Source of the DNA: a virus
Length of the DNA stretch: 64,000 nucleotides
IMG/VR virus record: IMGVR_UViG_3300023440_000003
Coordinates: 15,588-79,587 of that record
Reading direction: 5' to 3' (one strand)
Of this stretch, positions 9,207-62,565 are shown piece after piece. The notes beneath the pieces were generated by a model. That model made no database searches and was not told where the DNA came from. It worked only from the letters and a program-made list of their open reading frames with translations. Both the position numbers and the translations under genes were made by a program. Within the stretch, counting starts at the first letter, position 1; each line of letters begins with the position of its first letter.

Positions 9207-9215
9207 ATTTTATCA
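9207..9215 (-). promoter_or_regulatory. Extended -10 promoter (TGATAAAAT) for the ligD-tape measure unit
   Basis: TGnTAnnnT 15 nt upstream of the ATG. Confidence 0.55.
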
Positions 9216-9248
9216 TAGTGACTTCTGTTGAAGAAACCCTTATTTAGC

Positions 9249-9257
9249 GGGTATAAG
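9249..9257 (+). promoter_or_regulatory. Class-B promoter-like motif GGGTATAAG
   Basis: Same nGnTATAAG motif as at 21613, 31290, 60422 and 62516; upstream of the helicase operon. Confidence 0.5.
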
Positions 9258-9287
9258 TAGAGAAAATTACGACGAGGAGGTGGAGGC

Positions 9288-9494
9288 ATGAATGATCAAT
9301 TTATAAGGCTCAAGCGCGAGGATTTAGAAAACTTAGATTCCGTTAAAGATTTACTGACAGAGGTTATTTTGGCAGATAATACAGTAATTTACATGGTGAA
9401 AGATAACAAGCTAAATGATGTTGTTGAGTTTATAGACGAGTTTATGGATAGCTTCGACTACTTTCATGAATTTTATAGGAGGCTTATAAGATGA
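9288..9494 (+). CDS. Hypothetical protein
   Basis: Strong SD; overlaps the start of the helicase gene. Confidence 0.7.
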   Translation: MNDQFIRLKREDLENLDSVKDLLTEVILADNTVIYMVKDNKLNDVVEFIDEFMDSFDYFHEFYRRLIR

Positions 9495-11050
9495 TAGCTA
9501 CTTATAGAGATAAGTACGTAGTTATTGATGATGGTTATCACTATAAACAGTACTTAAAAAAGCTTGGTTTCGTCTGGGACTCTAAGATGAAAGCATGGAA
9601 ATTATTGGCTGATGTAGGAGCTTTTCGCGCGTTAAAAGAATTACGTACAACTTTTGCAGTGCCTGTAATTATAGACAGTAGACTCAAGCGATACAAAGAA
9701 CGATTAGCTCAATTGCTTAGAATGAAGATAGATTATTCGTCTTTTCAGCCTACTAAGCCTTCTATGGAACATCAGATCGATTCTACGTTACTGATTTTAA
9801 AAGCCAAACGTGCAGGCATTTTTAATGACACAGGTACGGGTAAAACTAAGATTGCGGTGGATGCTATAGAGTTTCTTATTAATAATGGATATATTCGTAA
9901 CGTTTTAATTATTACTCCAAAGCATTTAATTAAAAAATGGAAACGTGAGATAGCAAAGTTTACAAAATTGGATCCTGAAAGTATAGACATTATAAACTAT
10001 GAGTTTTTTTCCAGAAATCCAGATTTTAATATCACTTACGATATGATTGTTCTGGACGAAGCTACTTATATTAAAAATCCAAAAGCTAAACGGACTCAGA
10101 CTATCTGGAAATTAGGTGCTGGAGTTCCATTTAAAGTAGTACTTACTGCAACACCTACTACGCAATCCATCGAAGATTTGTGGTCTATTATGTTTTTCCT
10201 TGATGGTGGTAAGCGTCTTGGTACCAGTTTTAGTGCATTCAGAGATAAGTACATGCATAAGCGTGAGGTAAGACGACGGGATGGTAGTAAATTTGTAAAG
10301 TACATTCCTATCAAACGATTAATTGGAGAGATTACTGAGAATATTTCTGATATTACAGTCGCTTACACGAAAGATGTGATAAAAGATTTACCATCTAAAC
10401 TATACGACGAAAGGCCGTTGGAGCCTACTAAAGAAATGCTTGATTATCATCATATGGTGAAAAAAGGTATTTTTATATCTGGAGAAGACAAACTGTACAG
10501 AATCAAAAATACCATTATTCGTCTACATCAAATCACTTCTGGTTTTGTTTACGATCCAGATAAGGATCGGTATATAATATTTAAAAATAATCCTAAACTT
10601 GAAGCTTTGAAAGAGATTTTAGAAGAAGAAGTCAGAGGCAAGAAAGTTTTAATCTGGAGGACATTTGTTATAGAGACAGGTTTGATAAAAGAGGTGGTGC
10701 ACAAAGCAGGATTAAAGCCATTGATTCTGGATGCTAAAACTAAAGATCCTGCTGCGGTTCTTGATGAATTTCATAATAAAGATGATAGAGTGATAATTGC
10801 CAGTCCTTTTTCTCATAAATATGGGCATGAGATATTTGCAGATGTGATAATCTTCTATTCCAATTCTTTTTCTGTGGAAACAAGAAAACAGGCAGAAGAC
10901 AGAAGTCACAGATATGGTTCTGTGAGGTCGCCACTCTATATAGATTTATATTACGAGGGAATGATGGATGATTATGTATTGAAGAGTTTAAAAAGAAATA
11001 TAGATGTTTTAGACACCACAATATCCAATTTAAGGAGGGCGTTGATATGA
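9491..11050 (+). CDS. SNF2-family helicase/ATPase
   Basis: DTGTGKT (Walker A), VLDEAT (Walker B), LTATP, DLWS, LHQITSG, QAEDRSHRYG. Confidence 0.9.
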   Translation: MIATYRDKYVVIDDGYHYKQYLKKLGFVWDSKMKAWKLLADVGAFRALKELRTTFAVPVIIDSRLKRYKERLAQLLRMKIDYSSFQPTKPSMEHQIDSTLLILKAKRAGIFNDTGTGKTKIAVDAIEFLINNGYIRNVLIITPKHLIKKWKREIAKFTKLDPESIDIINYEFFSRNPDFNITYDMIVLDEATYIKNPKAKRTQTIWKLGAGVPFKVVLTATPTTQSIEDLWSIMFFLDGGKRLGTSFSAFRDKYMHKREVRRRDGSKFVKYIPIKRLIGEITENISDITVAYTKDVIKDLPSKLYDERPLEPTKEMLDYHHMVKKGIFISGEDKLYRIKNTIIRLHQITSGFVYDPDKDRYIIFKNNPKLEALKEILEEEVRGKKVLIWRTFVIETGLIKEVVHKAGLKPLILDAKTKDPAAVLDEFHNKDDRVIIASPFSHKYGHEIFADVIIFYSNSFSVETRKQAEDRSHRYGSVRSPLYIDLYYEGMMDDYVLKSLKRNIDVLDTTISNLRRALI

Positions 11051-11547
11051 GAGTAATTGGTATTGATCCATCTTTGAGGTACACAGGAGTTGTGATTTTA
11101 AATGATGATTACATTGAGAGATCCGTATTGTTATATTCGGTGAAGAAAGTTGATGTGAAAAATGCCGAGCCAATATATGTCGAAGATATGTATATTGGTT
11201 TGGATGAATATCTACCCAAATTAATATCCAAATATAACCCAACAATAGCTGGTGTAGAAATACCTTTTATCCCTAGAAACATGGGACATTTGAATAAAAT
11301 TCTTATTCTCTGCGGCTGGATTCAACATATTATTTACAAATCTCAGAATGGTGTAAGTGCTTTATTTGATGTAACTGTGCCTCAAATCAGGAATCATTTG
11401 AATGTATTTAAGAATTTTAAACATAATATCCGAACAAAGGTTAAGTCTTTAGTAGTTAACGCTGATTGGACTGGTAAGGACAGTCAACACTTGTATGACG
11501 CCACAGCAGTAGCATTGACTGCTATGCATATGATGAATCTAAAGTGA
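11047..11547 (+). CDS. ruvC: RuvC-like Holliday junction resolvase
   Basis: MRVIGIDPSLRYTG, GVE, C-terminal HLYDATAVA. Confidence 0.8.
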   Translation: MRVIGIDPSLRYTGVVILNDDYIERSVLLYSVKKVDVKNAEPIYVEDMYIGLDEYLPKLISKYNPTIAGVEIPFIPRNMGHLNKILILCGWIQHIIYKSQNGVSALFDVTVPQIRNHLNVFKNFKHNIRTKVKSLVVNADWTGKDSQHLYDATAVALTAMHMMNLK

Positions 11548-12827: not shown

Positions 12828-12830
12828 GAC

Positions 12831-18341: not shown

Positions 18342-18611
18342 CCAGGGAGGATCCCAGTAGTCCCCCTTGGCCGGGGGGCTCGGGGCACTACGGGTCTAGC
18401 CCCACCCCGCCCGTGGCCCTGAGAATCCTGGGATCGAAGAGGCTGTATGAGTAGGAGGGGCGCCCGGTAGGGGGTAGCCTCTCCGCTGCCCTGCGGTAGG
18501 TCCCACCTACCGCAGGGAAGGCTGACTGGGGACCCGGGACCCGGTCAGCCCAGGGTCAGCGTCGGACCGGCCTGGTCCACCGGTGGCGCTGACTTGGAGT
18601 TTTTTTTTTTT
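18342..18611 (+). ncRNA. Unassigned highly structured ncRNA
   Basis: GC-rich intergenic island in an AT-rich genome; at least six stems whose G-U wobbles favour the + strand; ends in 12 T. Confidence 0.75.
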
Positions 18612-18653
18612 AGCTATTATTTTATTTTAGACTTTTGATAAAATAGCTAAAAA

Positions 18654-21612: not shown

Positions 21613-21661
21613 CTTATAACATCATTTTACCTTTATGGTTAATAATAAAGTTTGCTATAAT
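21613..21661. promoter_or_regulatory. Divergent promoter pair: TGTTATAAG (-, 21613-21621) and TGCTATAAT (+, 21653-21661)
   Basis: Both motifs read directly in the divergent intergenic gap. Confidence 0.6.
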
Positions 21662-25670: not shown

Positions 25671-25699
25671 TTGCACTGTGGTTATTAGACTGGTATAAT
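25671..25699 (+). promoter_or_regulatory. Sigma70-type promoter TTGCAC-17-TATAAT with extended TG
   Basis: Near-consensus boxes and spacing. Confidence 0.65.
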
Positions 25700-29077: not shown

Positions 29078-29116
29078 TTTTAGAGAATAATAAGTTGATA
29101 TGATAATATGTTTACC

Positions 29117-29643: not shown

Positions 29644-29686
29644 GCTTTGGTAGAATAAATGGTAGAATCCTTCAGGAGGTGGTATC

Positions 29687-30017: not shown

Positions 30018-31268
30018 TCAATTTGCATTTGTACACAAAATTAATACTTTATCTGGATACTTTGAATGTCTAAACACTAATATTTGAACAAATCCTGATA
30101 TATTTCGTGGGGTTAGTATTATTTTTTGAGTTTTGGGGTTAAGTTTCTCTAAAAGTGCACTTATCTTTCTATACAAGGCTATATATTCTGTGGTTGACCC
30201 CAGTAACCTGAAGCCTTTATTATATAGCTTTTTGATAAGATTTCTTAAATCGTCCTTATATTTGTATTGTATTATTGCTATGTTTATATCTGGCTTATTT
30301 ATTTCAGCATTCTCGAAGAATCTGTCGTATAGGTGAATGGTATGTCGACCATAAAGTTCAACGCCAGCACTTTTTGCTGCCCATAATATAGGGTTTATGT
30401 ATCCATAATAACCGTTCTTTTTATTATGGTCTCTTTCTTTATCTAAAAATACAGCAGCTTTTTTGGATAATGATCTGGGAAGTTTTAACATTACTTTATC
30501 GTCAGTTTTTACGAAATATAATCCAAGAAATTTGAATTCCTCATTTTTCCTTATTGGTGTGATACGGATCTTAAATTTATAACGTCCAAATACAGACTTA
30601 ATGTAGTTTATGATTTTTTCATCACTTAAACTAGATTGAACTCCTATTAAAAAATCATCAGCATATCTGAATGTCACCATCGATAGCGATCTATTATATG
30701 CTTTTGTAATCACATTAAGTCTGTAAGTTAAGCCCGTAGTAAGTATTCCGGCAAGTATAGGTGATGTAGGTAATCCATAAGGGATATGACCATTTATGAA
30801 ACAATACGTTTTAATTACGTCTATGAATCTATCTATATCCATACCTAACTGCAACTTATTTACCTTAGCTATAAAATTTATTGAATCGTCCAATGCGACG
30901 TCATAAGTTTCATATAATTTTTTTGGGAGAACATATTTATATAGGTCTAATCTGTCAGGAGTTATTGATTCGAAGTAATTTATTACATCCACTTTAAAAA
31001 ATCTTCTGTCATCTTGCAGTATATGAAAGAGTTGTAGGAATTTTTGGCCTGAATGTACTGATGAGATAGCGAAATCAGTACAGTTAGTTTCGACATATTT
31101 TAGATATATGATGTAGTGTGTACTTAGAGTGTTATGCAAAATTTTTAGAACTTTTTCGTAAGGACCTAACGGTATATATATTTTTTTAAACTTATCTTTC
31201 TTCTTTATTTGTCTGACTCTATACACTTTGGGTATTTCTTTCTTGAAAATTTTTGTTTCAAACTCCAT
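30018..31268 (-). CDS. Reverse transcriptase, retron-like/unclassified
   Basis: KVDVINYFESI, IPYGLPTSPIL, FRYADDF, FLGL; strong SD AGGAGGTG. Confidence 0.88.
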   Translation of the reverse strand: MEFETKIFKKEIPKVYRVRQIKKKDKFKKIYIPLGPYEKVLKILHNTLSTHYIIYLKYVETNCTDFAISSVHSGQKFLQLFHILQDDRRFFKVDVINYFESITPDRLDLYKYVLPKKLYETYDVALDDSINFIAKVNKLQLGMDIDRFIDVIKTYCFINGHIPYGLPTSPILAGILTTGLTYRLNVITKAYNRSLSMVTFRYADDFLIGVQSSLSDEKIINYIKSVFGRYKFKIRITPIRKNEEFKFLGLYFVKTDDKVMLKLPRSLSKKAAVFLDKERDHNKKNGYYGYINPILWAAKSAGVELYGRHTIHLYDRFFENAEINKPDINIAIIQYKYKDDLRNLIKKLYNKGFRLLGSTTEYIALYRKISALLEKLNPKTQKIILTPRNISGFVQILVFRHSKYPDKVLILCTNAN

Positions 31269-31289: not shown

Positions 31290-31314
31290 CTTATATCTCT
31301 AAATATGCTAAAAT
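31290..31314. promoter_or_regulatory. Back-to-back promoters: AGATATAAG (-, RT) and TGCTAAAAT (+, RNAP)
   Basis: Both motif classes occur in the 56-nt divergent gap. Confidence 0.55.
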
Positions 31315-31324: not shown

Positions 31325-34300
31325 ATGGTCAAGGAATTCATTCAATTTGTCAAGTCAGTATTTCCGATAGCCACACAGAATCGTGAGATTAAACTGGATA
31401 ATGTCTATACAGATGCTTCCAAAATACCCGATGTATCTGATTATCAAATCCAAAAAAGATACAGACTTGAAGGCCGAAGTTTAAGTGTACCGGTTTATGC
31501 AGATTTTACTCTGTATGAAAAAGGCAAAGTTGTTGCTAAAGCACAGAAGTTGCTAATCGCTCGCGTACCGTTAAAACTTCCTAGAGGAACTTATCTGTTT
31601 AAGGGTAATGAGTTCTTTGTTGCAAATCAGCTTCGTTTGAAGCCAGGAATTTATGTCAGAATTAGAGAAAACGGAGAAGTGGAGGCCCATTTCAATTTAG
31701 CTAAGTGGACTTTTAAAGCTTATTTTAATGGAAGTAAAGTTTATGCTAAGTTCACAAGAGGTCCTGCTATACCTTACTATACATTACTGAAGCTATTTGG
31801 TGCTTCTGAAGATGAGATTAAAAATGCATTTGGCGAACTATATAATGAGAACATTTTATATGACGAAGATGCTATTCTTGGGTGGTATCGTGCATATTAT
31901 GGAGAAGGTACTAAGGAAGAAGCTGTAAAAACATTCAAAAGTATATTATCCTCCGGTTACAGGTTTGATCCGGAAATTTCCAGGCATCTTTTAAATATAG
32001 AAGCATCAAACATTAATAAAGATGTCCTGCTTGCAGCTTTAAAAAAACTTATCGCAGTACGGAGAGGTGAGAAAGAACCTGATGATAGAGATGCTTTGTT
32101 TTTTAAACAGCTATTGGAAGAAAGCGATATATTAAGTGAACATTTTCATAATATGAAATCAAAAGTTATTTTTAAAATACGAAGAAATCTAGTATTAAAA
32201 GACAAAATAAGAGATATTGTTCCTATAGCTGTATTTCAGAGTGTTGTAGACAATGTTTTTACTAAAGATCTTGTAAATCCTTTAAAGCAAACAAATCCAG
32301 TAACCATTGCAGAAAACAATTCCAGAGTAACTATTTTTGGAGAAGGAGGTATTAAGTCAGAATATGCAGTGCCTTATCAGGCTAGAGCACTTAATCCGTC
32401 GCATTTTGGTATTGTAGATCCAGTAAGGACTCCAGAATCTTCAAAGGTAGGGGCTGTATTATTTAGAACAATTGGAGCTGGTAAAGATCCGAAGACTGGT
32501 CTACCAGCAACTGAAGTTTTAGATGTGAAAACAGGAAAGCTTAAACGGATAACATCAACTGAATTTTTTAATTCAAGGGTTGCTTTTCCTGACCAAATTA
32601 AAGAAGTAAAAAATGGTAAGGTAGTTTTTAAGAACAAGTCTCAGGTAAAAATACTATACCGTGGAAATATTGAAATAGTTCCTGCATCTAAAGTGGATTA
32701 TGTTGTGCCTAACTACATGAATGTTTTTACTGTTTCGACCCTATTTTTACCTTTTTTACAATCATTACACCCTAACCGTGCTTCTAAAGCAGCAAACACC
32801 ATAACACAAGCACTTCCATTAAAATACAGGGAACCTCCTTTGGTCCAAAGCGCAATATCAGAAAATTTATCTATGGTGGATATTGTAGGCAGGCAATATT
32901 CAGTGAGATCTCCTGTGGATGGAGAGATAAAATCGGTTAAGAATAATGTGATAGTCATCAAAGATAAAAAAGGAAAAGAGCATAAAATATCTTTAGCTGA
33001 TTATCTTCCATTGAACCAAAATAGTTTCATCTCTATGGAAATTAAAGAAAATATAAAACCTGGCGTAAAGGTAAAAAAGGGAGATTTGCTGGCAGATACT
33101 AATTTTACAAAAGATGGTCAGTTGGCGTTAGGAGTGAATGCTATTACTGCTTTAATGCCGTTCAAACATTTAAATTTTGAGGATGGTATTGTGGTATCAG
33201 AGTCTTTTGCTAAAAAGCTTACTTCTCAACGTTTATTTCACTTTCGTTATCCTTTAGGTTCTGATGTAAAAATTGACAAAGAACTTTATCGATCACTTTA
33301 TCCTCATGAATTACTTGAAGACAATTATAAAAAGTTGGATGAGGATGGAATAATAAAGAAAGGAGCAGTAGTTAAAGATGGTGATATATTAATAGCGGGC
33401 TTAGTAAAAAAGAAGGAAAGTAAAATAGACGAAATAATTGCTCGGTTAAACAGACGTTTAGTTCAACCCTGGGTAAAAAAGCCATTAATTTGGGATAAAG
33501 AGTTTGATGGCATAGTAAAAGACGTAATTAAGACAAAACAGTTTATATCTATAACTGTTCTTACTGAAGAACCAGCAATAGTTGGAGACAAATTGACAAA
33601 CTCTCATGGTTCAAAAGGAGTCATTGTGCACATAATTCCTGATGATCAAATGCCTAAACTTCCGGATGGTCGAACTGTAGAGGTAATCATAAATCCTGTC
33701 TCTATTCTTGGAAGAAATAATCCATCTCAGGTTTATGAAATGGTAGCTGGAAAAGTAGCTGAAAAACTAAAACAGCCTTTAAAAATTCCAGCATTTGGAG
33801 TAGATGACACTCATAAGTTATTAAAAAATCTCACCAAACAATATGGGGTTTCGGATACTGAAACTTTAATTGATCCAGTTACCGGAAAGAAAATCCCCAA
33901 TGTTATGGTTGGTCCTATGTACATTTATAAACTGGAACATCAAGTAGAAGAAAAAATGTCAGCCAGATACAAAGGAGCCTATGATCAGTGGGATATGACT
34001 CCAGCAAAAGGTGTTGATGAACCTGGACAGGCTGTAGGGCTTATGGAAATATATGCTTTATTGGCTCATGGTGCAGGAAATGTATTAAAAGAAATGGCTA
34101 CATGGAAGTCAGAGCGTAATCCTTTATTCTGGGAGGCCATAGAAAATAACTTACCTCCTCCGCCCCCAAAGACTACATTTGTTACTAAAAAATTCGAGAA
34201 CTTATTGAGAGCTGCTGGAATTGATGTAAAAAAAGAAGGGCATCTCGTAAGGATAATGCCACTTACTCAAAGCCAGGTTAAATCTCTCACACAAAATCGT

Positions 34301-37300: not shown

Positions 37301-38845
37301 TTATTGGACAAAGCGTTTGTAGAATCGCTTAAAACTAAAGATCCATCAAAAATTAACCGTAAGGCTATGGAGCTGCGTCAAAAAATAATGAAGTCTTTAA
37401 TGAAGCAGGATGATAACACTTTGGTACAATTAGTTAAATCCGGTACACGCGCTAAAAAAGATTCCTTAATGCAACTTTTAGCTTCGCCAGTACAGCTTGC
37501 TGATGTATATGATCGTCCAATTCCTGTAATAGTTCCAAGAGGATATGCTAAAGGTATGGACACTATTGATTACTTATTTGCTTCTTATGGTGCTAGAAAA
37601 GGAGCGATAGAAAAAACAGTTAAAACAGGGGAACCTGGAGAGCTTTCAAAAGAACTTGTTGCTGCAGCGATAGATTATGTAATAACTATGGAAGATTGTG
37701 GAACTAGAAAAGGAATCGTTATGGATGTGGATAAGGCAGATGCTTTAAACAGAGCTTTAGCAGAAAATGTGGTTAAAAATGGTAAGATTATTGCAAAACG
37801 TAATGAGATAGTTGATGGTAAAGTATATGAAAAACTCAAAGAATCAGGAGTGAAACAGGTAAAGGTAAGATCACCTTTGACATGTGAAGCCCCTGATGGT
37901 ATATGTGTGTTATGTTATGGTGCTAAACCTGATGGCACAATGCCTCATATAGGAGAATACGTAGGAATTAAGAGTGCACAGTATTTAAGTGAACCTGTAA
38001 CACAGATGACTATATCTTCTGTACATACTGGTGGACTTGTTAAAGATATGGGCACTTCTTTTCAGGATATTAGAGCCGTAATGGAAATGAGTAATGTGCC
38101 TGCTAGAGCCACGGTTGCTAAAGTTGCTGGCAAAGTAGAAAAAATTGTGAAACGGCCAGAAGGCGGATATGAAATAATAATAGATGGAAAATCTCATATC
38201 ACTTCTCCATGGGTTGAACCTAAAGTTAAAGAAGGAGATGAAGTAGCCAAGGGTGATATTTTAACTACTGGTTTACCCCATCCAAAAGATATCTATGATG
38301 CCGCAGGCTTGGAAGCTGCACGTAATTTTGTAGTGAATTATCTTGATACTGCTTATCAACAAAATGGTATGAAGTTAGACAGGCGTCATTTTGAAATTAT
38401 AGGCAAAGTTATGTTTGATACAGCTGTTGTTACTGATCCTGGTGACACGGATTTAGTTCCCGGAGATTACGTTAAAATTAATAAACTCAAAGCTTTAAAC
38501 GCACAGATGCCTCCAGAAATAGACGTATCTTTAGAAGACGCAGCAGGTAGAATCTTGGCAACTCCTGTAGATAAATATCCTGCAGGTACTAAGTTAACTT
38601 CTGAGATAATAGATGATTTAAGAAAGAAAAAAATAAAAACCGTAAAAGTTAGAAGCAAGCCAGCATCATTCAAACCCGTAGTTAAAGGTATAGAACAATT
38701 GCCATTGCTTCGTGATGATTGGCTTACAAGAATGGCTTATAGAGATATTAAAAATACTGCTATAGAAGGGGCTCTACGTTCATGGAGTTCTGACTTACAA
38801 GGCTACAGTCCGATACCAAAATTAGTGTATGGAGAGACTCCATGA
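31325..38845 (+). CDS. rpoBC: Fused beta/beta-prime multisubunit-type DNA-dependent RNA polymerase, intein-containing
   Basis: Beta: NQLRLKPG, RTPES, NFEDGIVVSE, GDKLTNSHGSKG, YKLEH..EKMSAR, GLMEIYAL. Beta-prime: GGLFD, LPVLPP..RP, SGRSVI, NRAPSLH, DYDG, RSPLTC, EPVTQ..HTGG, RHFEII. Start is 31325 or 31313. Confidence 0.95.
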   Translation: MVKEFIQFVKSVFPIATQNREIKLDNVYTDASKIPDVSDYQIQKRYRLEGRSLSVPVYADFTLYEKGKVVAKAQKLLIARVPLKLPRGTYLFKGNEFFVANQLRLKPGIYVRIRENGEVEAHFNLAKWTFKAYFNGSKVYAKFTRGPAIPYYTLLKLFGASEDEIKNAFGELYNENILYDEDAILGWYRAYYGEGTKEEAVKTFKSILSSGYRFDPEISRHLLNIEASNINKDVLLAALKKLIAVRRGEKEPDDRDALFFKQLLEESDILSEHFHNMKSKVIFKIRRNLVLKDKIRDIVPIAVFQSVVDNVFTKDLVNPLKQTNPVTIAENNSRVTIFGEGGIKSEYAVPYQARALNPSHFGIVDPVRTPESSKVGAVLFRTIGAGKDPKTGLPATEVLDVKTGKLKRITSTEFFNSRVAFPDQIKEVKNGKVVFKNKSQVKILYRGNIEIVPASKVDYVVPNYMNVFTVSTLFLPFLQSLHPNRASKAANTITQALPLKYREPPLVQSAISENLSMVDIVGRQYSVRSPVDGEIKSVKNNVIVIKDKKGKEHKISLADYLPLNQNSFISMEIKENIKPGVKVKKGDLLADTNFTKDGQLALGVNAITALMPFKHLNFEDGIVVSESFAKKLTSQRLFHFRYPLGSDVKIDKELYRSLYPHELLEDNYKKLDEDGIIKKGAVVKDGDILIAGLVKKKESKIDEIIARLNRRLVQPWVKKPLIWDKEFDGIVKDVIKTKQFISITVLTEEPAIVGDKLTNSHGSKGVIVHIIPDDQMPKLPDGRTVEVIINPVSILGRNNPSQVYEMVAGKVAEKLKQPLKIPAFGVDDTHKLLKNLTKQYGVSDTETLIDPVTGKKIPNVMVGPMYIYKLEHQVEEKMSARYKGAYDQWDMTPAKGVDEPGQAVGLMEIYALLAHGAGNVLKEMATWKSERNPLFWEAIENNLPPPPPKTTFVTKKFENLLRAAGIDVKKEGHLVRIMPLTQSQVKSLTQNRFIKNAKMVVAGTLKEESGGLFDPELTGGLRGDKWAAIKLPDKLPSPIVLRVFSLLLNMKEKDIKDIILGVKKIQGMSGSEAILKLLKSKSLDEYLKQAQDMADVAKRSNNLNELNKANLIIRFIKYMKENNIKWEEFFLDRLPVLPPQFRPVYVDKHNRLFHSDFNLVYRDIKLLADQIQRAKQEGLPEDEINKMKKDLYESIEILYGLADPSSRYYGKRKPRGILDYIHGPKPKEGYYQHKVLRKTQDLSGRSVIVPNPGLHPDEIGIPEEMAWKIFEPFILAKLKSEFAMSPAEARIELANRGDKARKALELVASERLVIVNRAPSLHKYNMLAFKPKIVPGHAIHFPNVVVSMQSGDYDGNSLAGDEYVIYSLKDEIYFRPIKDFPREDSPYKISKRGVKYFKVPPGIKVLAYDYNTNTLKWDKVSSFSEHPVQKVYKVKTYHGASAVVTGDHSLLVFDPRDYTFKRMSPLEIMRNKNRRFFVVRPKKIRPLVEVPRIKLGDLELDLDFELGYLIGCYVGDGWVDNRNGFYIASMDNGIYGKLKRLIKRKFNVAMKARKAVTKIFKGYEATSRKLYANLPKEFRRFLKENCGSKASDKKLPSPIYFCSPVIFRLGLLSGLLDTDGTVHQSSEGRFTILYNTISEVLADEVRILALSLGIRSTIKKVKNTDGVEYFQIIFSCKDLAEAVFGKGIHLRLYHTKKKKILSKLFEVKRDKRFNGSLFNIVPISEELIYLLNYSYRKGSRFSADFILDTIKREYVPKEMISSILHNVHPRHEHLKKQFELLKAFIETDDVWFDFITEVIPQQEVPTYDLTTESKTFLCGIDFIVYDTTAIHVPVTQEALQDAVKLLPSQNWLHEGRPKEIWLTPKIEAIWGLYKITRDGKDKSKQFKFNNVDDALRAFHRGDIDITDTVVINNQKTTLGRALVNRILPKDFRDPNIKLDKTTINKLMRNIFEKYGGKEGARVAGELNKLGGDFAYLIGFKLSLDDFSPKFEDLLDKAFVESLKTKDPSKINRKAMELRQKIMKSLMKQDDNTLVQLVKSGTRAKKDSLMQLLASPVQLADVYDRPIPVIVPRGYAKGMDTIDYLFASYGARKGAIEKTVKTGEPGELSKELVAAAIDYVITMEDCGTRKGIVMDVDKADALNRALAENVVKNGKIIAKRNEIVDGKVYEKLKESGVKQVKVRSPLTCEAPDGICVLCYGAKPDGTMPHIGEYVGIKSAQYLSEPVTQMTISSVHTGGLVKDMGTSFQDIRAVMEMSNVPARATVAKVAGKVEKIVKRPEGGYEIIIDGKSHITSPWVEPKVKEGDEVAKGDILTTGLPHPKDIYDAAGLEAARNFVVNYLDTAYQQNGMKLDRRHFEIIGKVMFDTAVVTDPGDTDLVPGDYVKINKLKALNAQMPPEIDVSLEDAAGRILATPVDKYPAGTKLTSEIIDDLRKKKIKTVKVRSKPASFKPVVKGIEQLPLLRDDWLTRMAYRDIKNTAIEGALRSWSSDLQGYSPIPKLVYGETP
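35393..36802 (+). mobile_element. Intein (470 aa, Ser1, C-terminal Asp, Thr+1) with LAGLIDADG endonuclease in the RNAP catalytic loop
   Basis: SLAGDEYV start; block B VTGDHSL; LIGCYVGDG and LSGLLDTDG; ends TYDLTT..TFLCGIDFIVYD; flanks align to NADFDGDQMAVHVP. Confidence 0.9.
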
Positions 38846-42812: not shown

Positions 42813-42852
42813 TTGTCTAAAAGTATATCACAGAGATTAATTAACTTCCAAT

Positions 42853-43539: not shown

Positions 43540-43561
43540 TGAATTGCCTCAATGATAAAGT
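43533..43561 (+). promoter_or_regulatory. Sigma70-type promoter TTGACA-17-TAAAGT with extended TG
   Basis: Perfect -35 box, 17-nt spacer, GTG start 7 nt downstream. Confidence 0.7.
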
Positions 43562-43568: not shown

Positions 43569-44393
43569 GTGATTAGATTACCTTGCATACGTTTCATAGC
43601 GGCTTCATTAATTTTATTTGATGATATAGAACAATGTAAAGAGTTTCTTGTACAGAATTACGTTCCTTTACCTCCGGATGATAAATTACAAAAATTGAAT
43701 GAAGTAGTGAAAGGCTCTTCAAAACGATTGACAAAGACTCAAAAAATAAAACTTCTGAAAGAAAAGAAAATGCCAGAATTTGCAAGGTATTTTATAAAGG
43801 GTGAAATAGACATGGAGCCTGATTTTGATGAGCTCTTACACGTGCAGCAAAGTTTTAATATAAGAATACCACTTCAAGCTTTTTTGATGACCAAAGACCC
43901 TGACATGTTGAAATTAAGTCCTTTTGAGGTTTCTGAAAAAACACGTGAACTTTATAAATTCTATTTATTTGACATAGAAAAGATGAGATTAAAAGACTGG
44001 ATAGTTTATCTTAAGTTACTGTATGAATTATTTCCTACGGATGCCAAATTGCTACTTATGCTTAAGAAAGGAGAAACTTTCTTATTTAAAAGGCACTTCA
44101 AACACTATTTGAAGATAAGTATGGATGATGTAAATATGGAGCTTAATAGTACTGCTGTTACAGTATTTCGCTTGTTAAGTGAACAGATTATTAAACAGGA
44201 TGAATATGGAAATTTATACCTTGAAATGAAGCCAGAAGTTTTTAGGGAGGCTAGATTATGGGCTAATTTACTTATTAATTCTATGAAGGTATTCAGAGAA
44301 CAACTGACAGGAGAACAGATACCAGAAAAAGTGGAATTAGTGCCACATGAATATGATATACCCACATTAAAAAGATTAATAGATGGGAAGTAA
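43569..44393 (+). CDS. Hypothetical protein, terminase small subunit candidate
   Basis: Directly upstream of and overlapping terL; helical; start reassigned to GTG 43569. Confidence 0.4.
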   Translation: MIRLPCIRFIAASLILFDDIEQCKEFLVQNYVPLPPDDKLQKLNEVVKGSSKRLTKTQKIKLLKEKKMPEFARYFIKGEIDMEPDFDELLHVQQSFNIRIPLQAFLMTKDPDMLKLSPFEVSEKTRELYKFYLFDIEKMRLKDWIVYLKLLYELFPTDAKLLLMLKKGETFLFKRHFKHYLKISMDDVNMELNSTAVTVFRLLSEQIIKQDEYGNLYLEMKPEVFREARLWANLLINSMKVFREQLTGEQIPEKVELVPHEYDIPTLKRLIDGK

Positions 44394-45918
44394 CAAACCA
44401 GTACAGCTTCGCAGAAGCGATCTTGTTGCAAGTCTTATATATATCGGAGGAAAGCCTTTTGATTTTAAAAATAGAGAATATTTAATACCTATTTATGATA
44501 CATTTAGGCCGGTTGTATTAAAAGGTGGTAGACAGATTGAAAAAAGTACTTTGCTTGCTGTGATTATGATTATTGACGGAATAAGTCATGATTTTTTCAA
44601 TTCGTTATATGTGAGTTATACTCAAAAACAGGTATCATTTTTTTCTAATTTACGTTTCGATCCTATAGCGTCATACTCTCCTTACATAAAATCTCATTTC
44701 TATACCGGCTCAAATCTAATAAAAAGGGTTGGTGATAAAACTTTTCGCAATGGTTCTGCGTTCTTTTTTAGATCAATGTATTCACATCATACAGCAGAAT
44801 CTATAAGAGGATTAAGCGCTGATAGAATATGTTTCGATGAGGTTCAAAGTCTCGATCCTAGAGGAATGTCTATAGTGGAGGAATGTATGTCCCACTCACC
44901 GTATAAATATGTAATATATGCAGGTACAGCAAAATCTCCTCAGAATGAAATAGAACGTATGTGGAATATGTCGACTCAGATTGAGTATATGATCAAATGT
45001 GAAGCATGCAACCACTGGAATTATCAGGATGAGAAAATAATAGGCAAAAACAGTTATATATGCAGTAGATGTGGAAAGCCTATAGATATGAGAAATGGTA
45101 CTCTTGTTATGATGGGAGATAAATATGCGCCATACTTTGGAATGCGTATCACTCAGATGCAGGCTCCTTTTGTAAGTTTTGATGAAATAAAACTTAAATA
45201 TGAACGTATGCCATTATATCTGTTCTATAATGAAGTCCTGGGTCTTCCTTATGAATTTGCAGAACGCCCCATCAGTTTAAGAGAACTGCAGGCTTGTTGT
45301 GTTGATAGAGATTTCATAGAGTCTTCTACTCTTGTAGGTAGAACTGTAGCTGCGGGAATAGATTGGGGAGGCGGTACCAGATCTTTTACTGAGGTGGTTA
45401 TAGGAGAATTTATAAATGGTAAGTACAAAGTCTATTATGTGCATAGATTAAAAGTAGCAGATCCTATTGAGCAGGTGGATTTTCTATCTAGATTGCTGAA
45501 GACTTATAAAGTCAGAATTGCCGTATGTGATATGGGTTTTGGTGACATGAAAGTACAGGAGCTTAGAGCTCTAACTGGCATTCCAGTTATTGGTTGTTAT
45601 TATTCATCTACTAAAGTCAGAAGCATTATATATAAAGAAAAAGAAAATATGATCCATGTAAATAGAACCTGGGCCTTAAGTGAAGTATTTCGTCTTTTGA
45701 AACGTAGAAGGTTTGAATTTCCCAGATATTCTATAATGGCAGAATTTTTTGAAGAAATCCTGAACGTAACAACTGAGGTACATCAAGTTCAGGGGCAAGA
45801 TACAATTATGTATATTCACGATGCCGAACATCCAGATGATTTTCTTCATGCGCTGAATTATTTTAAAATAGCCTGCGATTATAAAAAATTCGTTGACAAT
45901 CTTAACATAGTGGTTTAG
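44383..45918 (+). CDS. terL: Terminase large subunit (GpA-like)
   Basis: VLKGGRQIEKST, IRGLSADRICFDEVQ, CEAC/CSRC zinc finger, NEVLGLPY, AGIDWG, DDFLHA. Confidence 0.88.
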   Translation: MGSNKPVQLRRSDLVASLIYIGGKPFDFKNREYLIPIYDTFRPVVLKGGRQIEKSTLLAVIMIIDGISHDFFNSLYVSYTQKQVSFFSNLRFDPIASYSPYIKSHFYTGSNLIKRVGDKTFRNGSAFFFRSMYSHHTAESIRGLSADRICFDEVQSLDPRGMSIVEECMSHSPYKYVIYAGTAKSPQNEIERMWNMSTQIEYMIKCEACNHWNYQDEKIIGKNSYICSRCGKPIDMRNGTLVMMGDKYAPYFGMRITQMQAPFVSFDEIKLKYERMPLYLFYNEVLGLPYEFAERPISLRELQACCVDRDFIESSTLVGRTVAAGIDWGGGTRSFTEVVIGEFINGKYKVYYVHRLKVADPIEQVDFLSRLLKTYKVRIAVCDMGFGDMKVQELRALTGIPVIGCYYSSTKVRSIIYKEKENMIHVNRTWALSEVFRLLKRRRFEFPRYSIMAEFFEEILNVTTEVHQVQGQDTIMYIHDAEHPDDFLHALNYFKIACDYKKFVDNLNIVV

Positions 45919-45960
45919 TTTGGGTATTGAACATATGAATATGCTAAAATTGACTTGACT

Positions 45961-50414: not shown

Positions 50415-50453
50415 ATTTTGGTTTTCATATAACTTTCTGTTATTATTATTAAC

Positions 50454-51389: not shown

Positions 51390-52349
51390 ATGAGGTTAAC
51401 ATTAGCAGATCTTTATGCTTCGCTTTCTAAAGGTAATATAACAAAAACTGCTCAGGCTTTTGAGTCTATTATTCGTAAACGTATCAGAGAAGACGGAAAG
51501 GCACGTATTGCGCTTCCTCCTATAAAGATCAATCCTAGCGATCTGACCTATGATCCTAACAATGAAACTCTGTTTAGGGTCATCCATATTGAACCTGAAG
51601 TGCATCGTGATTTTGCAGTAGTCACTTCTCTTAAAGGCAAGGCTGAAAAAGTTCAGACCCGTCCAGAAGCCGTTGCTGCATATCTGTACACTGTGGCAAC
51701 GAAAGAAGTAGAAATTGATGTTGTTGATACTTGGAAAACTAATTACAGCTTACAATCCTGGCTTCAGCAAAATCTTATCAAAGATCTGGAAAAGAAAGAG
51801 ACTCAGAAATTCCTCGACCTTGTACACGTTGCCGCAAATAGTACCGGATCAATAATCCAGATTCCTGCTGCTTCATGGATCAGCTTCGATCAGATACTCA
51901 GTCAGGGAATCTCCAAATTCTCTGAGGATGAGAGACGTGGATATCTCAATCTTATCATGATGAACGAAAAAGACTTTACTATTATGGTGTCTAACCTGTT
52001 CTCTCAGCAGGTGGCTGTGGATCAGCTGGCAAGAGAAATAATCTCAGATTCTCTGCAGATCACCACACTTTTCGGATATCAGTTTGTAGTCACCAGACAG
52101 AGCTCTCTTATTCCGCCTGGTGTGATTTATCTCTTTGCTAAACCAGAATGGCTTGGTGAATTCGCTCTGGTTACTGATGTATCTGTGCACATTGAAAGCA
52201 AACAGAAAAAGTTCAGCTTTGCTGCATGGGAAGCCTTCACAATGGCTATTGCTAATCCTTATGGATGTGTGGTACTTGTCCAGGAGGGAATTCCGGCTAC
52301 TAACCTGGGTAACTGGGATAAATACACCGAATCCGGTATTGTAGCATAA
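51390..52349 (+). CDS. Major capsid protein (HK97 fold)
   Basis: 319 aa after protease and scaffolds; spine helix IKDLEKKETQKFL, IMMNEKDF, TLFGYQFVVT, IPPGVIY; followed by a strong terminator. Confidence 0.8.
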   Translation: MRLTLADLYASLSKGNITKTAQAFESIIRKRIREDGKARIALPPIKINPSDLTYDPNNETLFRVIHIEPEVHRDFAVVTSLKGKAEKVQTRPEAVAAYLYTVATKEVEIDVVDTWKTNYSLQSWLQQNLIKDLEKKETQKFLDLVHVAANSTGSIIQIPAASWISFDQILSQGISKFSEDERRGYLNLIMMNEKDFTIMVSNLFSQQVAVDQLAREIISDSLQITTLFGYQFVVTRQSSLIPPGVIYLFAKPEWLGEFALVTDVSVHIESKQKKFSFAAWEAFTMAIANPYGCVVLVQEGIPATNLGNWDKYTESGIVA

Positions 52350-52409: not shown

Positions 52410-52456
52410 ATGTTAAAATTTAGCCGTAAAGATTAATACTTTAAGGAGGTTTAGAG

Positions 52457-53371: not shown

Positions 53372-54150
53372 TGGTAGACTTCGTCGAAGTTACGGTTTAT
53401 CCCAGAATTCATGATTTAAGCTTTGAAGTATACTGGAAAGTCACTGATTATTTAGGTTTTAATGTAACTTTTTATGTACAACGTGCTGATGCGCCTGATC
53501 CATCCTTGATGCAGGATGTTTCACCTGCTCTTGTGGATACTTATTATTATCATGATACTGATGCATATTTATACAGACGTGATACTAAATATTTTTACAG
53601 AATCCGCATGGAATATTTAGCAAATGGCAATCTTGTGACAAAATATAGTGATATAGTATCGGAACCTGATCCTATCAGACCGGAAGTTAAACATATAGTT
53701 AAGGAAGATTACATTTATTTATCACGTTTTGTTAACGAACCTATAAAAGTTTACAAACGCAAAAGATATGGCAAAAGATGCAATGAATGTTATGACCCAA
53801 TAAAAGGACGTGTCATTAGAGAAACCTGTTATGTATGTTATGGTACAGGATTCGAAGGTGGCTATTATGGACCTTTTGATACCTACTGGAATAGAGGTCT
53901 AAAGCCTGTAGCAAATGTTTTGAATCAGCAAGCCAGTCTAGATGTTCCAGAAAATACTCAGGCATGGATGTCTATTTATCCACTTTTAGAAGTGGATGAT
54001 CTTATTTACTCAATTAAAGAAGGTTTATTATATAAAGTCAATAATATACAGGTTCCACGATTCAGAGGATATCCTATAAGACAACACATTTATCAATGTA
54101 ATGCTCTTAACATAGGAGCTCCTGAGTATAGATTACTTGAGAGTTTATGA
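53368..54150 (+). CDS. Neck/head-closure protein with zinc finger
   Basis: CNEC...CYVCYGTGFEGGY; position in the neck cluster. Confidence 0.55.
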   Translation: MMVDFVEVTVYPRIHDLSFEVYWKVTDYLGFNVTFYVQRADAPDPSLMQDVSPALVDTYYYHDTDAYLYRRDTKYFYRIRMEYLANGNLVTKYSDIVSEPDPIRPEVKHIVKEDYIYLSRFVNEPIKVYKRKRYGKRCNECYDPIKGRVIRETCYVCYGTGFEGGYYGPFDTYWNRGLKPVANVLNQQASLDVPENTQAWMSIYPLLEVDDLIYSIKEGLLYKVNNIQVPRFRGYPIRQHIYQCNALNIGAPEYRLLESL

Positions 54151-54162
54151 TATTATATACAT

Positions 54163-54516
54163 ATGACTGAGTTTGAATATCATACTTTACAATTTCCATA
54201 TATAACTTACGGTTCAAATTTAGGTGCAGCTGTTGCAGGAGGATTAATAGGAGGAACTGAGCTTGGTTATTTAATTAGACGCAGGTTGTTAGGAGATCAT
54301 TCGTTGCCTCCAAGAAAATATTATCCGTATTTATTGGCTGCTGGATTAATGCTGGGAGGTTTAGCAGGAAGTTTATTTGATTTTGGTATTATTTCCAGAT
54401 CAAGGCGCAGGAGGAGACAGGAAGATAAACCTGTGATGTTGGCACGTCCTCTGGCTGCATTATATTACTCTCCTGAATTAGAAGAGCAACTATTAAAGCA
54501 GATAGGGTCTTTATGA
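54163..54516 (+). CDS. Glycine-zipper membrane-helix protein
   Basis: GAAVAGGLIGG and GLMLGGLAG. Confidence 0.55.
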   Translation: MTEFEYHTLQFPYITYGSNLGAAVAGGLIGGTELGYLIRRRLLGDHSLPPRKYYPYLLAAGLMLGGLAGSLFDFGIISRSRRRRRQEDKPVMLARPLAALYYSPELEEQLLKQIGSL

Positions 54517-58929: not shown

Positions 58930-58951
58930 TGTTTACAACATATCATGCCTG

Positions 58952-59005
58952 AGCTAAAAAAAGCAAGATCTAAGTAATCCTCCCGGGGGATTTTCCCCCG
59001 GGAGG
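58952..59005 (-). terminator. Hairpin plus TTTTTTTAGCT terminator-like element
   Basis: 12-bp stem at 58979-59005, then T7-AGCT 16 nt further along the minus strand. Confidence 0.65.
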
Positions 59006-60305: not shown

Positions 60306-60379
60306 CCATCTGAGCGGGCCACTCAGATGGCCGAATAGCTAAAAGCGGGTAGGAAGGGGAATTCCCCCCTTCCTACCCG
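60306..60379 (-). promoter_or_regulatory. Double-hairpin leader with internal terminator-like element
   Basis: 14-bp stem at 60346-60379, then TTTTAGCTA, then a 9-bp stem at 60306-60330. Confidence 0.6.
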
Positions 60380-60421
60380 TGTTACTAATCAAAATTTACT
60401 ACCCTGTTTTTTATTTCTTAC

Positions 60422-60461
60422 CTTATAACATAAACAATCCGTAGCTGTTTCGTGTTAAAAG
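60422..60461. promoter_or_regulatory. Divergent class-B motifs TGTTATAAG (-) and TGTTAAAAG (+)
   Basis: Located in the divergent intergenic gap. Confidence 0.5.
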
Positions 60462-60490
60462 AAATAAAATTAACTGGAAGGAGGTGATTC

Positions 60491-61204
60491 ATGGAGAGAA
60501 AACTTATTTTATTTCGACCACCTAAAAATGGTGATTTATATGTAGAAGTTTCATTTAAAGCTGATGATGGTGCAGCATGGACTGAACCCTGGTTACGTAA
60601 CTCATTTACTAATACTGGTTATGGTGATCTGCTAGGAAACACAACGTTTTTAGATTTGATAGAGGCTAGTTTGTATGGTTATTATGAAATCTATGGAGAT
60701 ACTTCATTTTATATGCGTAACGTTAATATATTCAATCAAGGTATTATACACATGTCTTCTGGTTTTATTAGTCAACGACTCGTCAGAGAGATTGAATCAG
60801 GAATATTTGATATAAAAATAAAGAAGCACGGGGAATCTATATACATTATATTACCAGAAAGAAGCAAGATAGCAGATTTCAGAAAAAATTATCAGGAACA
60901 TTATATGATATGCATACCTTCTGAAAACTATTCTAGAGAAACTGTAGATTACATTAAAAGTCAGGTAAGTATTTATTTTCCGAAAATAAAAGTTGAAAAA
61001 ATATTGTGCGAAGTAAAGATTGCTTTGGAGACTATAGTAATGCTAGAAGAAACAGCTCCAGGACATCTTATGTACAACGCAGAATATTCTTTAATAAATC
61101 ATGATGTCACTTATAAAGAGGTGAAAAAAGCTTTCAACACTCCAGTGACTATAGAAATGCCTGCTATTATATTTGGAGGTGATCATGATTTTGAAGAGTT
61201 CTGA
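60491..61204 (+). CDS. Hypothetical protein (expanded family)
   Basis: Strong SD; LYGYYEI. Confidence 0.65.
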   Translation: MERKLILFRPPKNGDLYVEVSFKADDGAAWTEPWLRNSFTNTGYGDLLGNTTFLDLIEASLYGYYEIYGDTSFYMRNVNIFNQGIIHMSSGFISQRLVREIESGIFDIKIKKHGESIYIILPERSKIADFRKNYQEHYMICIPSENYSRETVDYIKSQVSIYFPKIKVEKILCEVKIALETIVMLEETAPGHLMYNAEYSLINHDVTYKEVKKAFNTPVTIEMPAIIFGGDHDFEEF

Positions 61205-61667
61205 TAAGTTCGTATTCTTTGGTGAAGTGGTAAGTATGAATATTACATTTATAAATCCATGTGAAACTGGTTTATTAACTAAGATCTGCATAATTCCCGA
61301 CCCTAAATATGGCAGACTGATAAACATTACTCATAAAAAGGATATGATTCAGGAGTACTATACTTTAGAACGAGTACATGTGCAGAGATGCAAAGATATT
61401 AAAGGATTTATATCAGGAGAATTTTTCTTTAATGGCACAGATTTTATACTTCTGAGAACGGGTCTCAGAATAAAAGAGGATGTTCCTATAATTGCTAAAG
61501 TGTCTTATTCTGCTATTGGACAAGTAACTACAGATGTGTTTGATCTTTTGCTGGAACGTAGTATTCGCATTCTGAATTCTACTAATCATACTATATATAG
61601 TGATAATATAGTCAATGCTATAAGAAAGTTGATGAAACGATCAAAAAGACAGGGAGGAACTGCATGA
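61185..61667 (+). CDS. Hypothetical protein (expanded family)
   Basis: GGAGGTG SD before ATG 61185; KDIKGFISGEF. Confidence 0.6.
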   Translation: MILKSSDKFVFFGEVVSMNITFINPCETGLLTKICIIPDPKYGRLINITHKKDMIQEYYTLERVHVQRCKDIKGFISGEFFFNGTDFILLRTGLRIKEDVPIIAKVSYSAIGQVTTDVFDLLLERSIRILNSTNHTIYSDNIVNAIRKLMKRSKRQGGTA

Positions 61668-61846
61668 AAAGATCTTTTTTGGTGCGAATATATAAACACA
61701 AAATTTATATAACCATATCAAATGTAAACGAGCCAACTCGCTTACTCAGGAAAATGGGAATAATCATTTATTCTTATAATTTTTCAGATAATAGTCCAAT
61801 ATTTATGCTTCCTAATACTGTTTTGTCTAAATTAGAATCAAAATGA
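61664..61846 (+). CDS. Hypothetical protein
   Basis: Coupled 60-aa ORF with SD. Confidence 0.55.
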   Translation: MKRSFLVRIYKHKIYITISNVNEPTRLLRKMGIIIYSYNFSDNSPIFMLPNTVLSKLESK

Positions 61847-62508
61847 TTACCAGAACAATTACTGTTAGCGTATCACCATTAACCTTGACTATTTCATTAG
61901 ATTATCCTTCTACATTGTATGATTTAGCAACTAAACATGAAATCATGGTGTTTCCTTTTTTAGGATATACTGATGTAGTAAAAGTAAAAGATAACACTTT
62001 AATCAAAGATGTTATTAATTGTATTGTCATAGGTGAAGTTGAAATACATAATGATTCTCTTGAAATACTCAGCTCAAGTTTGAGAATTCTATGTAAGGAA
62101 GTTATATACAAGATAGGTGATCCCTCCGATCCTGATGTTAAAGTCTGGATTGGCCCAAATAAGCGCAATAATTGGATTTCTAACATAATTCTCCCATCGG
62201 AATATGAAATGAAGAAACTAAATATAAAAACTATTTATAATCTGAAATGTGACATCGTTTCTTATACGCCAGACTTCACAGAAAAAGCTACTGAACTAGT
62301 AAAACCCATACTATCCAACTTCAACGGTTTTGATCAAGTAGTGGCTTATTATAGATTATCTGCATCTACTAGTATACCATTTTATGAAAAATATCCTGGA
62401 TATTTGGTAATCCATCCCGACATTAAAATGACACCAAAAATTATCAAGCCAAAATTAAATAAAGGAGTGACAGTAGAACTGCATGATAAAGTAATACGAA
62501 AGTTGTAA
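61843..62508 (+). CDS. Hypothetical protein (expanded family)
   Basis: IKDVINCIVIGEV. Confidence 0.65.
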   Translation: MITRTITVSVSPLTLTISLDYPSTLYDLATKHEIMVFPFLGYTDVVKVKDNTLIKDVINCIVIGEVEIHNDSLEILSSSLRILCKEVIYKIGDPSDPDVKVWIGPNKRNNWISNIILPSEYEMKKLNIKTIYNLKCDIVSYTPDFTEKATELVKPILSNFNGFDQVVAYYRLSASTSIPFYEKYPGYLVIHPDIKMTPKIIKPKLNKGVTVELHDKVIRKL

Positions 62509-62565
62509 GTTTTGATGTTATAAGACATAAAAAGTGCTACAAAATTTTTCTAAAGGGGGTGAAAC

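Follow-up and report, generated by a model that had tools for sequence, protein, structure and literature searches.

Which RNA polymerase (RNAP) reads which genes in a phage that encodes an RNAP of its own? The question is raised by a stretch of 64,000 nucleotides (nt), hereafter the window, that covers positions 15588-79587 of the 79,587-base pair (bp) IMG/VR record IMGVR_UViG_3300023440_000003; site coordinates are those of the window unless marked "genome". The record is listed as linear and, by CheckV, is ~44% complete; complete relatives measure 160-191 kb. The window encodes a fused beta-beta' RNAP with a LAGLIDADG intein (31325-38845, plus strand; 2506 amino acids (aa); Pfam Rpb2_6, Rpb1_1/2/3/5, intein and LAGLIDADG_3, with 186 bits for Rpb2_6 and 100 bits for Rpb1_5). 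A first-pass annotation made from the sequence had proposed two promoter classes, class A read by the host sigma-70 enzyme and class B by the phage enzyme, and had likened this logic to that of coliphage N4. Our analysis makes it probable that the phage does run two such programmes, with class B as private promoters for the phage polymerase, class A for the host RNAP and, as in N4, a polymerase delivered by the virion; the fused polymerase is the candidate reader of class B.

All 17 promoter sites named in the first-pass annotation are present at their positions, and in three divergent gaps a class A and a class B site do lie back to back (9207/9249, 21613/21653 and 31290/31306). Genome-wide, neither TGNTANNNT (322 copies compared with 296 expected) nor GNTATAAG, i.e. 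GnTATAAG (11 copies compared with 16 expected), is in excess, and therefore only placement is informative. Similarly, a generic sigma-70 scan of this AT-rich DNA (~35% guanine plus cytosine (GC), 6.7% non-coding) gave 86 hits compared with 88 expected, leaving signal and background inseparable. With respect to placement, 6 of the 11 GnTATAAG copies are intergenic (binomial p 3e-5), as are 10 of the 22 copies of TGNTAWAAT, all of which are directed at a gene (binomial p 6e-7). The class A sites are thus real, but the loose pattern TGnTAnnnT by which they had been described is not above chance genome-wide, and it is the tighter TGnTAwAAT that is intergenically enriched. Further, when intergenic 8-mers were ranked by enrichment, TGTTATAA came directly behind the Shine-Dalgarno words (7 of 12 copies intergenic, 0.39 expected).

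The class B core in this phage is G-n-TATAAG, usually with a T before it, an A-rich patch ~18 nt upstream and an A-run 5-7 nt downstream. The class B sites are as follows.

9249-9257, plus strand: class B site GGGTATAAG, upstream of a 68-aa open reading frame (ORF) and of the SNF2 helicase and RuvC genes; the leader is 30 nt long and has a Shine-Dalgarno site.
21613-21621, minus strand: class B site TGTTATAAG, heading a six-gene ORFan operon that runs from 21587 down to 18863.
31290-31298, minus strand: class B site AGATATAAG, serving the reverse transcriptase gene (31268 down to 30018).
60422-60430, minus strand: class B site TGTTATAAG, for the minus-strand genes from 60275, with a terminator ~45 nt downstream.
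60453-60461, plus strand: variant class B site TGTTAAAAG, for the operon at 60491-62508.
62516-62524, plus strand: class B site TGTTATAAG, for the operon at 62566.
61616-61624, plus strand: candidate internal class B site TGCTATAAG, 39 nt ahead of the next gene start.
Genome 5600-5608 and genome 6681-6689, minus strand: further class B sites to the left of the window, absent from the earlier list.

The 60453 variant belongs to the class less securely, since the clade shows no enrichment of TAAAAG, and the evidence for 61616 is weak because the site lies inside coding sequence. At 62516 the flanking genes run in tandem, which fixes the orientation of the motif. The units headed by class B sites encode the helicase and RuvC, the reverse transcriptase, an AAA ATPase and many small ORFans, all of them non-virion, and their leaders of 21-41 nt all contain strong Shine-Dalgarno sites, which in this phage read GGAGGTG. 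The site at 31290 diverges from the RNAP gene, and the same arrangement is found upstream of the RNAP gene in most relatives.

The principal new finding, that class B is a signal of the whole clade, comes from these relatives. Phages with beta-beta' polymerases are abundant in metagenomes: a protein search found >1600 homologues of the fused polymerase, of ~2000 aa, and a profile search returned 355 IMG/VR contigs, from which 80 loci were kept, 74 of them non-redundant (1.59 Mb, GC 30-67%). The loci were picked solely for the fused beta-beta' polymerase. As the top intergenic 8-mer in the 74 loci we found GGTATAAG/CTTATACC, with 56 of 96 copies intergenic where 2.8 were expected (ln p = -118). 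GGTATAAT, with 2 intergenic and 15 coding copies, is not enriched, and GGTATAAA has 3 intergenic and 24 coding copies. Most single-base variants of GGTATAAG are flat; only GGCATAAG, GTTATAAG and GATATAAG, which differ at the second or third position, are also enriched, and GTTATAAG and GATATAAG are the forms preferred by this phage. Because the enrichment is lost on a single-base change, the final G is specific, and the word is not a degenerate TATAAT. The GC content of loci with GGTATAAG ranges from 38 to 67%, and class B is thus independent of host composition.

The logo of 105 intergenic sites consists of AAA, a 15-nt spacer, G-G-T/C-A-T-A-A-G, an A-rich patch, and a T (75 of 105 sites) and a purine (97 of 105) 6-7 nt past the core; judged from the sequence, this is the geometry of a -10 element at -14 to -7. 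The logo contains no conserved hairpin, and the promoter is a linear word. In the relatives, class B is followed by leaders of 24-67 nt with Shine-Dalgarno sites and, in 11 cases, by a long ORF at a conserved ATG. Because CTTATACC lies 6-9 nt before the RNAP start in many relatives, we considered the possibility that the word is read on the opposite strand. This was rejected because the flanking logo, the Shine-Dalgarno leaders, a distance peak and the tandem-gene sites all favor GGTATAAG pointing at its own gene, and the tandem-gene sites in this phage (62516 and genome 5608) agree with that orientation. A 28:30 tie of orientations in tandem gaps was an artefact of small genes missed by the gene caller.

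The word is also partitioned by strand. Up to 10 kb from the RNAP gene, the strand opposite to it carries 74 intergenic class B copies, compared with 4 on its own strand. The complete relatives G001, G002, G003 and G005 each carry 16-36 class B copies, mostly on one strand, as listed below together with a control in which the pattern was read backwards and both strands were summed.

G002: forward strand 31, reverse strand 0, control 9.
G005: forward strand 16, reverse strand 0, control 14.
G003: forward strand 29, reverse strand 6, control 12.
G001: forward strand 9, reverse strand 27, control 15.

In the complete relatives, class B heads replication and nucleotide-metabolism genes and never virion genes. 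G002 is an example: its class B strand has the genes for an AEP primase-MCM protein, DNA polymerase A, a ResIII/DEAD helicase, ribonucleotide reductase, RNA ligase and a PD-(D/E)XK nuclease, whereas those for the polymerase, the large terminase, a tape-measure-like protein and large tail-like proteins are all on the other strand (103 kb). Similarly, the cultured orphan Salmonella phage Arash (OQ632216, 180.8 kb) has 31 copies of GGTATAAG, 30 of them on the strand of the nucleotide-metabolism genes (control 10). Locus L009 (30% GC) repeats the layout of our phage, with GTTATAAG before small genes, TGTTAAAAT followed by 7 nt and an ATG before a homologue of a 655-aa protein (see 42822 below), and the large terminase further on.

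We then turn to class A. Consistent with the first-pass annotation, the two classes have separate gene partners: class A precedes virion genes, LigD and the polymerase gene, and class B precedes non-virion genes. About 17 sites fit an extended -10 sigma-70/SigA promoter by sequence (TG at -15/-14 and a TAnnnT hexamer), a type for which the -35 box is dispensable and transcription begins 6-8 nt downstream. The class A sites are as follows.

9207-9215, minus strand: class A site TGATAAAAT, 15 nt from the LigD ATG at 9191, without a Shine-Dalgarno site.
18636-18644, plus strand: class A site TGATAAAAT, ATG at 18654, 9 nt on.
21653-21661, plus strand: class A site TGCTATAAT, in-frame ATG at 21672, 10 nt on.
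25691-25699, plus strand: class A site TGGTATAAT, with a 34-nt leader and a Shine-Dalgarno site, then the start at 25734.
29101-29109, plus strand: class A site TGATAATAT, ATG at 29117, 7 nt on; missed by the earlier list.
29648-29668, plus strand: tandem pair of TGGTAGAAT extended -10 words, at 29648 and 29660, before a 109-aa gene at 29687; missed by the earlier list.
31306-31314, plus strand: class A site TGCTAAAAT, RNAP ATG at 31325, 10 nt on, without a Shine-Dalgarno site.
42822-42830, minus strand: class A site TGATATACT, ATG at 42812, 9 nt on; the gene encodes the 655-aa protein, conserved in 25 relatives.
43553-43561, plus strand: class A site TGATAAAGT, with a perfect TTGACA at 17 nt and a GTG at 43569, 7 nt on; heads the large-terminase operon.
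45942-45950, plus strand: class A site TGCTAAAAT, ATG at 45961, 10 nt on.
50438-50446, plus strand: class A site TGTTATTAT, ATG at 50454, 7 nt on; heads the major-head-protein operon.
52411-52419, plus strand: class A site TGTTAAAAT, just past the terminator of the head gene, with a 37-nt leader and a Shine-Dalgarno site, then the start at 52457.
54148-54156, plus strand: class A site TGATATTAT, ATG at 54163, 6 nt on.
58937-58945, minus strand: class A-like site TGATATGTT, ATG at 58929, 7 nt on; missed by the earlier list.

A -35 box at 17 nt had been ascribed to some of these sites; it is perfect at 43553, which is the only class A site with a good one. This phage has hardly any -35 boxes, but its extended -10 words are enriched between genes, where 21 of 103 copies lie; L009 uses extended -10 words as well. 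G001 and G002 show no enrichment of extended -10 words on the strand of their virion genes, and the promoters there are of the bipartite type TTGACn-N16-18-TAnAnT, with 11 of 19 copies between genes in G001 and 5 of 15 in G002. The host-type promoter of the polymerase gene follows the same division, being bipartite -35/-10 in two relatives (TTGACT-N17-TATTAT in G002) and extended -10 in this phage. The word TGGTAGAAT is also found upstream of RNAP genes in relatives, and because TGGTAGAnT-type words lie upstream of RNAP genes in the GC-richer ones, class A may have a clade flavor of its own. Over all loci, TGnTAnnnT is 1.7-fold enriched, and controls that destroy T-12, A-11 or T-7 are flat. 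A class A that is loose and changes its style between relatives, compared with a class B word that is invariant, fits a host-read class A and a phage-read class B.

The two classes also differ in their leaders. Of the 20 class A units, 13-14 have no Shine-Dalgarno site and a start codon only 6-10 nt past the -10 box (15 nt for LigD), and the histogram of -10-to-start distances peaks at 7 and 10 nt. Starts with this geometry are those at 18654, 21672, 29117, 31325, 42812 (minus strand), 43569, 45961, 50454, 54163 and 58929 (minus strand) and at genome 6763, 7525 and 9888; the same geometry is seen in L009, G001 and G002. Shine-Dalgarno leaders are present in 8 of 8 class B units compared with 6 of 20 class A units (Fisher p 0.002). 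The short spacing without a Shine-Dalgarno site suggests that these class A genes are expressed from leaderless mRNAs.

Evidence that links the polymerase to the virion comes from Arash, which has homologues of the portal, polymerase and large terminase of our phage. Its polymerase is a split version of the same enzyme and adjoins the portal gene, the portal homologue being annotated just upstream of the polymerase gene. By liquid chromatography-mass spectrometry of Arash virions, RNAP beta Gp206 was the most-detected protein (3516 spectra), and beta' Gp216 (1210 spectra) and a "sigma factor", Gp10 (467 spectra), were found as well (PMC10585845). The authors of that study suggest a role of the virion polymerase in early transcription, and mention neither promoters nor terminators (PMC10585845). 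In our hands, Gp10 matches Pfam Sigma70_r3 with 35.7 bits and region 2 weakly, and its matches to regions 2-3 of SigA, RpoS and FliA are about equally weak and thus point to no one sigma group. Homologues of Gp10 are present in G001, G002 and Vibrio phage D69, the last of which has a fused polymerase of 30% identity and a Gp10-like sigma of 44% identity to Arash Gp10; the sigma-like gene lies within the virion-gene block in G002, Arash and D69. We consider that a phage sigma-70-family factor of the clade, which the first-pass annotation had not foreseen, probably supplies the specificity for class B. At most class B sites of Arash (L103/L104), the core is followed by a 4-nt spacer and GTGTAAAC (N4-GTGTAAAC), a longer and phage-specific downstream box that could mark the start site.

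A second clade-wide word consists of a hairpin, a T-run and AGCTA; in the relatives it shares the strand of class B (14 copies compared with 2 on the other strand). TTTTAGCTA has 16 intergenic and 15 coding copies, and any single-base variant has at most 6 intergenic copies. In the window, the following signals resemble it.

18553-18620, plus strand: clade-type terminator, a hairpin, T12 and AGCTA, with the word at ~18607.
60336-60379, minus strand: clade-type terminator, a 15-bp hairpin and then CTTTTAGCTA, with the word at ~60344, in the leader of the class B unit starting at 60430.
58952-59005, minus strand: terminator-like hairpin and T7-AGCT, with the word at ~58960, at the end of a class B unit and just before the class A site at 58945.

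The hairpin/T-run/AGCTA word may be the termination signal of the phage polymerase. At the 60430 promoter, the hairpin follows after ~45 nt, well before the gene at 60275, and could act as an attenuator or yield a short RNA of ~85 nt. The signal at 18553 closes a GC-rich, multi-hairpin stretch of ~270 nt in this 35%-GC genome (18342-18616, plus strand), which has no called ORF or Rfam match; since it ends in T12-AGCTA, it is probably transcribed.

The sequences show that there are two motif classes, where they lie, that class B is conserved and which genes each class heads; from this we infer the assignment of enzymes, the start sites, the timing and, for this phage, delivery by the virion. 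The polymerase, most likely with a phage sigma-70-family factor, would be expressed late, under a host-type promoter, and then packaged in the capsid. Upon injection, the enzyme would start at G-n-TATAAG and so express replication, recombination and small ORFan genes, and the host primary-sigma holoenzyme would read the extended -10 promoters of class A, i.e. those of the virion genes, LigD and the polymerase gene. Class B would fire first and class A would serve the late genes, as in N4. Because the private word is found in distant relatives of unrelated hosts, its most likely reader is the polymerase of the phage itself, probably carried in the virion. Further, the replication genes depend on the phage enzyme, yet the RNAP gene is part of the virion programme that the host reads, which makes it probable that the polymerase is packed and injected. 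With a class B that is clade-wide, a virion-linked polymerase behind host-type promoters and the Arash proteomics, the N4-like reading is the best supported. On a larger scale, the proposition is that a large and widespread clade of tailed phages, from Salmonella to low-GC hosts, packs a bacterial-style holoenzyme, a single-chain core with its own sigma-70-family factor; that the injected enzyme starts the whole non-virion programme at a -10 element ending in G and not in the near-universal T; that the units end at a private hairpin/U-run/AGCUA terminator; and that the virion genes are left to the host polymerase, here largely as leaderless mRNAs. On this larger proposition we are evenly divided.

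Several observations weigh against the N4-like reading. The Arash proteome comprises 116 "virion" proteins, ribonucleotide reductases among them (PMC10585845), and therefore carry-over of abundant intracellular proteins is possible. Searches of our record with three Pfam sigma models, with Arash Gp10 (tblastn) and, over all ORFs, with a six-sequence profile found no sigma gene (the best match, E 0.013, is the 109-aa protein at 29687), a result that says little because more than half of the genome is missing, and that missing part could also encode a second polymerase or a regulator. Despite a related polymerase and sigma, Vibrio phage D69 (L082, OZ195729) shows no enrichment of GGYATAAG, and its branch probably uses a different private word; the GC-rich G004 carries only 4 class B copies. 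The class B word varies more within this phage than across the clade (GTT, GAT and GGT around the second and third positions and two TAAAAG variants), its downstream signature differs from that of the clade, and it occurs on both strands. Finally, the start sites and the timing are predictions, and the sequence offers nothing that would keep the host polymerase off class A promoters early in infection.

The main rival is a host-first cascade as in T7, in which the host reads the RNAP gene at once, class B promoters are middle promoters, the virion genes await an activator or replication, and nothing is injected. Such a cascade would agree with a polymerase gene that has a host-type promoter, as it does in this phage (31306) and in G002, and the Arash polymerase signal, being one among 116 proteins that include metabolic enzymes, could be carry-over. 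However, the virion and polymerase genes share one promoter type and the same blocks without a visible subclass, so that replication genes would come after, or together with, capsid genes; moreover, Arash beta is the most-detected protein of the particle and the sigma-like gene lies among virion genes. We therefore regard a host-first cascade as unlikely. It is also conceivable, although improbable, that a phage sigma-like factor redirects the host core to class B and that the fused polymerase reads something else or serves another task. With its G at -14, TATAA and an expected start ~7 nt downstream, the class B core does resemble the -10 element of the sigma-70 family, and a sigma-70-family protein is conserved in the clade; however, class B co-occurs with the fused polymerase from Salmonella to a low-GC host, such that the sigma would have to fit very different cores, while the phage core accompanies it from host to host, and no other promoter class is left for the phage enzyme.

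The remaining two explanations would do away with class B as a promoter class. In one, TATAAG words are weak or chance variants of the host sigma-A extended -10 promoter, as might be thought from the four of six window sites that read TGnTAwAAG, one base off class A, and from genome-wide counts that are not above chance. The ~20-fold intergenic enrichment of GGTATAAG in relatives, where GGTATAAT has none, together with the strand exclusivity of the word in complete genomes and its segregation with gene class and leader type, makes this a very remote prospect. In the other, the word is the binding site of a regulator or of a replication or packaging protein, which would suit its frequent presence in divergent gaps (67 of 150 intergenic sites found with a loose class B pattern). 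We give this very little credence, given the word's fixed orientation to downstream genes, its distance of 20-60 nt from start codons, its likeness to a -10 element, the pyrimidine-purine pair at the expected start, and the terminator-like signals paired with it on the same strand.

The other annotated genes referred to above are as follows.

5760-9191, minus strand: LigD with an intein, ATG at 9191.
9491-11547, plus strand: SNF2 helicase and RuvC.
30018-31268, minus strand: reverse transcriptase.
44383-45918, plus strand: large terminase.
51390-52349, plus strand: major head protein.
Ending at 1559: portal homologue.

LAGLIDADG endonuclease domains are present in the inteins of both LigD and the polymerase, and the Pfam lists show polymerase inteins in many relatives too. 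Most other proteins of the phage have no family match, and Rfam and tRNA scans of the window returned no match. The DNA polymerase, ribonucleotide reductase and sigma-like gene of the relatives were not found in this ~44%-complete fragment. Neither a single-sequence search of viral contigs nor megablast of the RNAP gene against phage records revealed a close relative, and the two nearest homologues have 60% and 48% identity.

The scheme matters beyond this phage. The promoter word, the terminator word and the candidate sigma together provide an annotation key for genomes of ~180 kb that are 80% "hypothetical", a key that splits the early/non-virion from the virion programme by sequence alone. 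They also amount to a natural orthogonal set of sigma, core and promoter, in which a single base (G rather than T at -7) appears to separate phage from host recognition; this is relevant to synthetic biology and to the recognition of the -10 element by sigma region 2. Since Arash is in culture, the scheme can be tested directly. Our literature searches on the word, the clade name and related terms returned no description of these promoters or of gene expression in the clade.

With respect to known systems, the closest in logic is coliphage N4 (Schitoviridae), in which a late-made virion polymerase reads private early promoters and the host sigma-70 polymerase reads the late virion genes, among them that of the polymerase itself. 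In N4 this enzyme, a single-subunit, T7-like domain within a 3500-aa protein, recognizes DNA hairpin promoters, and a second phage polymerase transcribes the middle genes. As in N4, promoters apparently unlike those of the host precede the non-virion genes (GnTATAAG, with its obligatory final G kept clade-wide), and promoters that match the host sigma-70 type in sequence precede the virion genes and, with them, the RNAP gene; to this extent the earlier N4-like inference holds up. In contrast to N4, the enzyme here is a cellular-type beta-beta' fusion, its promoter is a linear, -10-like word, and no second polymerase is seen. Because of its multisubunit Rpb1/Rpb2 domains and the absence of hairpin promoters, the phage would work like N4 but not be a member of that group.

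The promoters of sigma-28/FliA/SigD (TAAA-N15-GCCGATAA) resemble class B in layout, with an A-rich patch, a 15-nt spacer and an 8-nt -10 word that contains ATAA. However, the class B word GGTATAAG lacks the critical CGA, and class B was rejected as a sigma-28-type promoter. The jumbo phages phiKZ and AR9 likewise use a virion two-barrel beta/beta' polymerase for early genes and short private promoter words (PMC7598289). Their enzymes consist of four or five divergent split subunits, exist in two complete sets and make infection independent of the host polymerase (PMC7598289), whereas here we find one fused and more bacterial-like chain, a sigma-70-family partner in relatives and host-type promoters on late genes; a second polymerase set was found neither in the incomplete record nor in the searched loci. 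The mReC clade of Weinheimer and Aylward (2020), tailed phages with deep-branching beta and beta' known from metagenomes, was described without mention of promoters, terminators or sigma (PMC7481178). Our phage agrees with that clade in being a tailed phage whose beta/beta' sequences can be aligned to COG0085 and COG0086, and it has Pfam polymerase domains, a terminase, a head protein and a portal homologue. The mReC phages and Arash have the same kind of polymerase and complete genomes of ~160-190 kb, and Arash shares GGTATAAG. Compared with Arash and mReC, our phage is low in GC, uses GTTATAAG more than GGTATAAG, has extended -10 and not bipartite late promoters, and distributes its genes over the two strands in a more mosaic manner.

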